Of a DNA stretch of 36,521 nucleotides, positions 26,515 through 26,556 are shown one piece after another. Both the position numbers and the translations under genes were made by a program. This DNA is from a virus. Its lineage: Duplodnaviria > Heunggongvirae > Uroviricota > Caudoviricetes. A model generated the notes under the pieces. It did not search any database and had not been told where the DNA came from. It was given only the letters and a program-made list of their open reading frames with translations. How positions within the stretch are numbered: position 1 is the first letter of the stretch; every line of letters begins with the position of its first letter. The DNA lies in the IMG/VR virus record IMGVR_UViG_2778261065_000031, positions 1 to 36,521 of that record, one strand, 5' to 3'.

Positions 26515-26556
26515 AGAACATTTTGTATTGACTCAGTAAAGTACACATCGTACTAT
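26515..26556 (+). promoter_or_regulatory. pL promoter with overlapping OL operator dyads
   Basis: -35 TTGACT (26528-26533), 17-bp spacer, -10 TACTAT (26551-26556); dyads AGAAC-N5-GTATT (26515-26529) and AGTAC-N5-GTACT (26540-26554). Confidence 0.55.

Follow-up and report, generated by a model that had tools for sequence, protein, structure and literature searches.

A putative cI-repressed early leftward promoter with three operators in a lambdoid (P22-like) Escherichia coli prophage

Between a cI-type repressor gene and an N antiterminator gene of a tailed-phage genome lies a promoter-like sequence overlapped by inverted repeats. Is this the early leftward promoter of a lambdoid phage, and how many operators does it hold? 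We addressed this question in IMG/VR record IMGVR_UViG_2778261065_000031, whose entire 36,521 nucleotides are referred to here as the window. An earlier note, made from the sequence alone, had proposed a TTGACT/TACTAT promoter with two operator dyads of one family, an arrangement suited to repression of pL by cI. The computational tests (context, lambda geometry, kinship with the OR sites, conservation and annotated homologues) all agree with that proposal. We conclude that the locus is very probably pL with a tripartite OL, belonging to a lambdoid (P22-like) E. coli prophage and repressed by cI. Its anatomy, its homology to known phages, its pattern of conservation and the existing annotation of its homologues are direct observations and are described first.

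Genomic context of the promoter

The promoter lies 3' of the terminator of cI, is directed away from cI, and reads into nutL and the N antiterminator gene. We identified the following features in and around this region:

22480-23931, minus strand: gene for a DnaB-like helicase
23906-24805, minus strand: gene for an O-like replication protein
24977-25273, minus strand: cII
25415-25630, minus strand: cro (71 aa; HTH_3 by Pfam; recognition-helix motif TQGAIGHW)
25742-26401, plus strand: cI repressor gene (219 aa from the first ATG; N-terminal HTH_3 and C-terminal Peptidase_S24 by Pfam)
26432-26461, plus strand: intrinsic terminator of the cI transcript (26432-26453 plus the T-run; 8-bp stem)
26528-26533, plus strand: pL -35 hexamer TTGACT, from sequence reading, consensus scan and comparison with lambda
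26551-26556, plus strand: pL -10 hexamer TACTAT, from the same three sources
26563-26572, plus strand: start of the leader, ATCAGCAGGA, with the putative transcript start (+1) at A26563, placed by homology to lambda
26602-26615, plus strand: boxA-like sequence GGCTCTTTAAACAA of the nutL region (26602-26648)
26617-26630, plus strand: nutL hairpin 1, GTCGA-ACAC-TCGAC, 3' of boxA
26635-26648, plus strand: nutL hairpin 2, TGGCT-GAAA-AGCCA, 3' of boxA, with a GNRA-type loop
26747-27019, plus strand: N antiterminator gene (90 aa; Pfam N_peptide, E = 6.6e-31)

This is the setting of a lambdoid pL: an outward-pointing sigma-70 promoter next to the repressor gene, followed by a nut site and then an N-type gene, with an adjacent repressor of HTH and S24 domains and a divergent cro encoding an HTH_3 protein. 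The two hexamers, for which the earlier note had given exact coordinates, are read directly from the sequence and enclose a 17-bp spacer (26534-26550). In a consensus scan, TTGACT-17-TACTAT was the sole promoter-like match on the plus strand between cI and N. The consensus match is not significant in itself, with 3 matches against 4.2 expected in shuffles; as it is no better than chance alone, we used it only in context. The pL region is present in 960 of 5,426 complete E. coli genomes, and the stretch from cI to pL has matches in many phages.

Operator sequences and their statistics

Three dyads were found at OL and, across the repressor gene, three candidates at OR:

26540-26554, no strand: OL1, the perfect dyad AGTACACATCGTACT (AGTAC-acatc-GTACT), centred at -16 and covering the spacer and four bases of the -10
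26515-26529, no strand: OL2, AGAACATTTTGTATT (AGAAC-atttt-GTATT), centred at -41, its last two bases being the first two of the -35
26481-26495, no strand: OL3, AATACAAAGCGTTAT (AATAC-N5-GTTAT), centred at -75 from the inferred start
25659-25673, no strand: OR1 candidate AATACGATATGTACT, overlapping the pR -10 (25657-25662, minus strand)
25692-25706, no strand: OR2 candidate AATACATCTTGTGCA, adjoining the inferred pRM -35 (25707-25712)
25718-25732, no strand: OR3 candidate AGTACAGAGCGTAAT, overlapping the inferred pRM -10 (25730-25735)

The three OR candidates are homologues of putative operators annotated in AP000422 and AP005153. Direct reading bears out both of the dyads proposed earlier at OL: OL1 takes in 26540-26550 of the spacer and runs four bases into the -10, and OL2 overlaps the -35, with which it has two bases in common. 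The earlier count of two was incomplete, as a further dyad, at 26481-26495, is homologous to the third operator annotated in VT2-Sakai and the Stx1 converting phage.

The perfect dyad AGTAC-N5-GTACT occurs once in the 36.5-kb window, against an expectation of 0.04. Ten dyads with up to two mismatches are present in the window. Four of these fall in the intergenic regions on either side of cI, which together measure 456 bp and would be expected to hold about 0.2. When up to three mismatches are allowed the pattern is not enriched in the window (93 found, 83 expected). We discarded this loose search as evidence since it has no discriminating power; the signal appears only at two or fewer mismatches combined with position. 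OL2 and OL3 differ from the perfect dyad by two and three mismatches, respectively, and taken alone are weak matches. Because a two-mismatch match is itself weak, OL2 is convincing solely through its position, its conservation and the rank that an OR-derived matrix gives it.

This half-site matrix was built from the three OR candidates only (25659, 25692 and 25718) and used to scan the whole window (36,507 positions). OL1 ranked first, OL2 fifth and OL3 13th, which upholds the proposal that the dyads belong to one family, shared with the sites between cro and cI; the three OR sites themselves are also among the top 13. The three OL dyads, which overlap the hexamer region, have a consensus in common with OR across the repressor gene, as expected of a lambdoid pL/OL.

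One further sequence, AGTACGGAAAGTACA at 33281-33295, has a single mismatch to the operator dyad and ranks fourth under the OR matrix. As it lies inside an ORF (32958-33473), we treat the match as most likely due to chance and reject it as a seventh operator.

Conservation of the operators in related loci

A scan of IMG/VR supplied 80 loci in which the N-terminal domain of cI is 100% identical to that of the window. Combined with the named phages, they yield 44 distinct OL sequences; columns were counted with phage L excluded. No half-site column of OL is polymorphic (0/30), while 3 of the 15 columns in the 5-nt operator centres and 16 of the 36 inter-site columns vary. For half-sites against inter-site columns, Fisher's test gives p = 1.5e-5, a value that overstates independence because the relatives are closely related. 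The same pattern was found at OR. Among close relatives the -10 hexamer is invariant and the -35 nearly so.

A more distant comparison is provided by Salmonella phage L (ST64T immC), whose repressor and Cro are 46% and 69% identical to those of the window and both carry the recognition-helix motif TQGAIGHW. Its half-sites are of the same family, with AAGTACATTTTGTATTG occurring twice at pL. The OL1-OL2 spacing is 25 bp, as in the window, with a full-strength site at the OL2 position, and the start sequence, CCATCAGCAGGA, is also the same. The two differ in the hexamers (TTGACG and TATTGT in phage L), in the distance from OL2 to the likely OL3 (30 bp in phage L, 34 bp in the window) and in the downstream module, which in phage L is a P22-type gp24/nutL module.

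We consider it very unlikely that OL1 alone is a real operator and that the AGAAC/GTATT and AATAC/GTTAT sites merely resemble it by chance in AT-rich DNA. The 345-bp intergenic region would hold about 1.3 sites of OL3 grade (three mismatches) and about 0.15 of OL2 grade (two mismatches) by chance, and the lack of enrichment of the three-mismatch pattern in the window is in keeping with such an origin. Against it, of the 82 related loci 76 have an unchanged OL2, centre included, and 78 keep the half-sites of OL3, although the neighbouring bases vary. Both sites also rank near the top under a matrix to which no OL sequence contributed, OL2 is centred exactly where lambda has its own OL2, and phage L has its full-strength site in the same place at the same spacing. 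These observations favor a tripartite OL.

Comparison with phage lambda

The promoter and start region of the window are homologous to lambda pL. Lambda has TTGACA-17-GATACT-gagcac-ATCAGCAGGACGC and the window has TTGACT-17-TACTAT-ttagcc-ATCAGCAGGAAGC; the 17-bp spacer and the 6 nt between the -10 and the ATCAGCAGGA start are common to both, and the geometry overall agrees to within 1 bp. We take the lambda pL transcript to begin at the homologous A (lambda coordinate 35582), and on that basis the start is placed here at A26563. From this start the transcript would read through nutL into N, as in lambda.

The operators occupy similar positions, as judged from the annotation of OL1-3 in the lambda record. 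OL1 lies over the spacer and -10 in both phages, centred at -16 in the window and -17 in lambda, and OL2 is centred at -41 in both, its 17-mer form ending in the TTG of the -35. OL3, centred at -75, is 14 bp farther upstream than its lambda counterpart at -61. The operator sequences themselves are unrelated (TACCACTGGCGGTGATA in lambda, AAGTACACATCGTACTA in the window). The two repressors differ in their N-terminal domains, but show only two substitutions across the aligned C-terminal part; the stretches at the cleavage site (QAGMF) and at the catalytic Ser and Lys motifs (GNSMT and FKKL) are identical to those of lambda cI. In addition, cI and OL are adjacent in the window, without the rexAB genes that lambda has between them.

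Relationship to VT2-Sakai and other Stx phages

The closest annotated counterpart is the immunity region of VT2-Sakai (Sp5). Its CI is 97% identical to that of the window (209/216), with the first 44 aligned residues, including the HTH, identical, and its Cro is 100% identical (71/71). Homologues of the promoter hexamers, of each of the three operators, of nutL and of the beginning of N follow one another in the same order in the two phages. The OL stretch of VT2-Sakai type is about 82% identical to that of the window, with most of the differences in the inter-operator spacers and operator centres. Half-sites are identical in five of the six operators, whose differences fall in the 5-nt centres; the exception is a single OL3 base (GTTAT in the window, GTTGT in VT2-Sakai). 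With a near-identical repressor, an identical Cro and half-sites matched at OL and OR apart from that one base, the window has the VT2-Sakai immunity type. The Stx1 converting phage AP005153 and the Stx2 II phage AP005154 also carry an OL/pL of this type.

The feature is therefore already known as the OL/pL of the VT2-Sakai/Sp5 immunity type, and the earlier note recognised a textbook arrangement correctly. For some two decades, the records of VT2-Sakai and related Stx phages have carried annotations of the homologous sites: AP000422 (VT2-Sakai) and AP005153 each mark three 17-mers at OL and another three at OR as 'putative operator'. The VT2-Sakai record also carries, at homologous positions, a 'putative major leftward promoter' and a 'putative N-utilization leftward', and it places a terminator of the pRM transcript upstream of its OL. 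A 2023 study (PMC10742460) used the VT2-Sakai sites as operators and lists OL1 in its Table S1 as TAGTACGATATGTACTT, the reverse complement of AAGTACATATCGTACTA, which is one central base off window positions 26539-26555. In that study, EMSA on the VT2-Sakai sites was carried out with lambda CI only, and binding was weak (apparent affinities of 3.7-6.4 uM). In the literature searched, we found no binding study using the cognate CI on operators of VT2-Sakai/Sp5/Nil2 type and no paper containing the exact operator strings.

The element that carries the locus appears to be a P22-like, non-Stx prophage. A P22-like match that is 99.7% identical over the pL region has no stx in the region examined. 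The interval between cI and OL also differs, with about 1.4 kb of extra ORFs in the Stx phages and about 80 bp in the window. Identical Cro, near-identical CI and the same operators together place Sp5-type immunity in an apparently non-Stx, P22-like prophage, and we predict from these likenesses that such prophages are homoimmune and cross-regulating with Sp5-type Stx2 phages. The list of sites and the conservation map could be used in designing an experiment with the cognate repressor.

Even less probable than a lone OL1 is the idea that TTGACT/TACTAT is fortuitous, that the true leftward promoter lies elsewhere and that the dyads are distal auxiliary sites for looping to OR. Promoter-like matches are, it is true, equally frequent in shuffled sequence. 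Yet no other match exists on the plus strand between cI and N, the hexamers align one for one with those of lambda pL with the lambda transcript start sequence kept, both hexamers are conserved among close relatives as described above, and the VT2-Sakai record labels the homologous sequence as its major leftward promoter. We can practically dismiss the view that the dyads are nucleic-acid hairpins, such as a terminator or an RNA element, instead of protein-binding sites: OL1 is a perfect inverted repeat whose single-stranded DNA fold (-2.6 kcal/mol) beats that of its shuffles (z = -3.1), but the stems are of 5 bp and AT-rich, OL2 (-0.1 kcal/mol) and OL3 (0 kcal/mol) do not fold, the dyads are situated between a proper terminator and the inferred start, an Rfam scan of the whole window gave no family above its threshold, and variation sits in the 5-nt centres with none in the half-site columns, so there are no compensatory changes in the stems.

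Proposed regulation of pL

On the reading of the locus as pL with three operators, we infer binding, repression, cooperativity and the exact start site as follows. Dimers of the neighbouring cI would bind the 15-17-bp dyads A(G/A)TAC-N5-GTA(C/T)T in the lysogen. Reading of the DNA would fall to the HTH N-terminal domain, and dimerisation, cooperativity and RecA-stimulated self-cleavage to the C-terminal S24 domain, which is of lambda type. Bound to OL1 and OL2, cI would exclude RNA polymerase from TTGACT-17-TACTAT; cooperative binding to these two sites is likely because the C-terminal domain is of lambda type. OR is only some 0.8 kb distant, and a long-range contact of OL with it is also possible. 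Cleavage of cI upon SOS induction would allow transcription from about A26563 through nutL (26602-48) into N (26747-27019), and N would then act at nutL. Later, Cro is expected to bind the same sites and turn pL down.

Cro is the second expected ligand of the OL sites. The recognition-helix motifs are TQGGIGHW in cI and TQGAIGHW in Cro, and with this motif common to both proteins Cro is expected on the same operators. When the N-terminal domain of cI was searched against the PDB, the only matches were distant HTH repressors (lambda, P22 C2 and 434), with no close relative among them. PDB entry 28tn, described as a 'lambda repressor-like protein' of 82 aa, is a clear homologue of Cro (E = 4.5e-17) and could serve as a template for modelling operator recognition by Cro.

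Operator spacing and the OR region

Measured centre to centre along the plus strand, the operators are spaced by 33 and 26 bp at OR and by 34 and 25 bp at OL, which indicates that the two arrays are direct copies rather than mirror images. The outer operators are 59 bp apart in both arrays, and OR3 matches OL1 at 12 of 15 bases. A lambda-like spacing of about 25 bp (about 2.4 turns) separates OL1 from OL2 at pL, but at OR it separates OR2 from OR3 and not OR1 from OR2. We speculate, with considerable doubt, that this spacing leads to a pattern of cooperative pairing and OL-OR looping that differs from that of lambda, despite a difference of only two residues in the cooperativity domain. If so, the logic of the Sp5-type switch, which governs induction of Stx2 phages, might depart from the lambda paradigm.

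We made several further observations at OR. The length of the A-run between OR1 and OR2 (25674-25691) varies from -1 to +2 bp among otherwise near-identical relatives, which indicates that the OR1-OR2 spacing is not strictly fixed. The inferred pRM (-35 TGGATG at 25707-12, -10 AATAAT at 25730-35) was placed through homology to the VT2-Sakai annotation. Its position suggests a start roughly at 25742, the A of the first ATG, which points to a cI message without a leader, as in lambda. Annotations of the cI start disagree: AP000422 uses the second ATG (25748), and RefSeq and AP005153 an upstream start.

Modularity of the region

Across the 80 related loci, OL/pL travels together with cI, and at least four N/nutL modules are joined to this unit just 3' of ATCAGCAGGA. 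They comprise a lambda-type, an H-19B/VT2-type and a P22/L-type module and one other. The start of the leader, ATCAGCAGGA (26563-26575), is common to lambda and Salmonella phage L, and these sequence comparisons identify it as the mark of a recombination joint.

The gap between cI and OL (26402-26480), where lambda has rexAB, is an insertion hot spot. It holds 1-1.5 kb of extra DNA in eight loci (the affected loci include L014, L017, L050, L023, L001 and L003), with the operators undisturbed. The extra genes include a gene with an NYN domain in phage 2B8 and several small ORFs in Stx phages.

Downstream of pL, nutL hairpin 1 differs from that of VT2-Sakai by an indel in the loop. A 17-codon ORF, MTCVGRQKMKLGSKPLI, is located at 27017-27070 and starts within the stop region of N. 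It presumably resembles the C terminus of N from phage 21, and in view of this likeness it may be a remnant of an earlier exchange of N modules.
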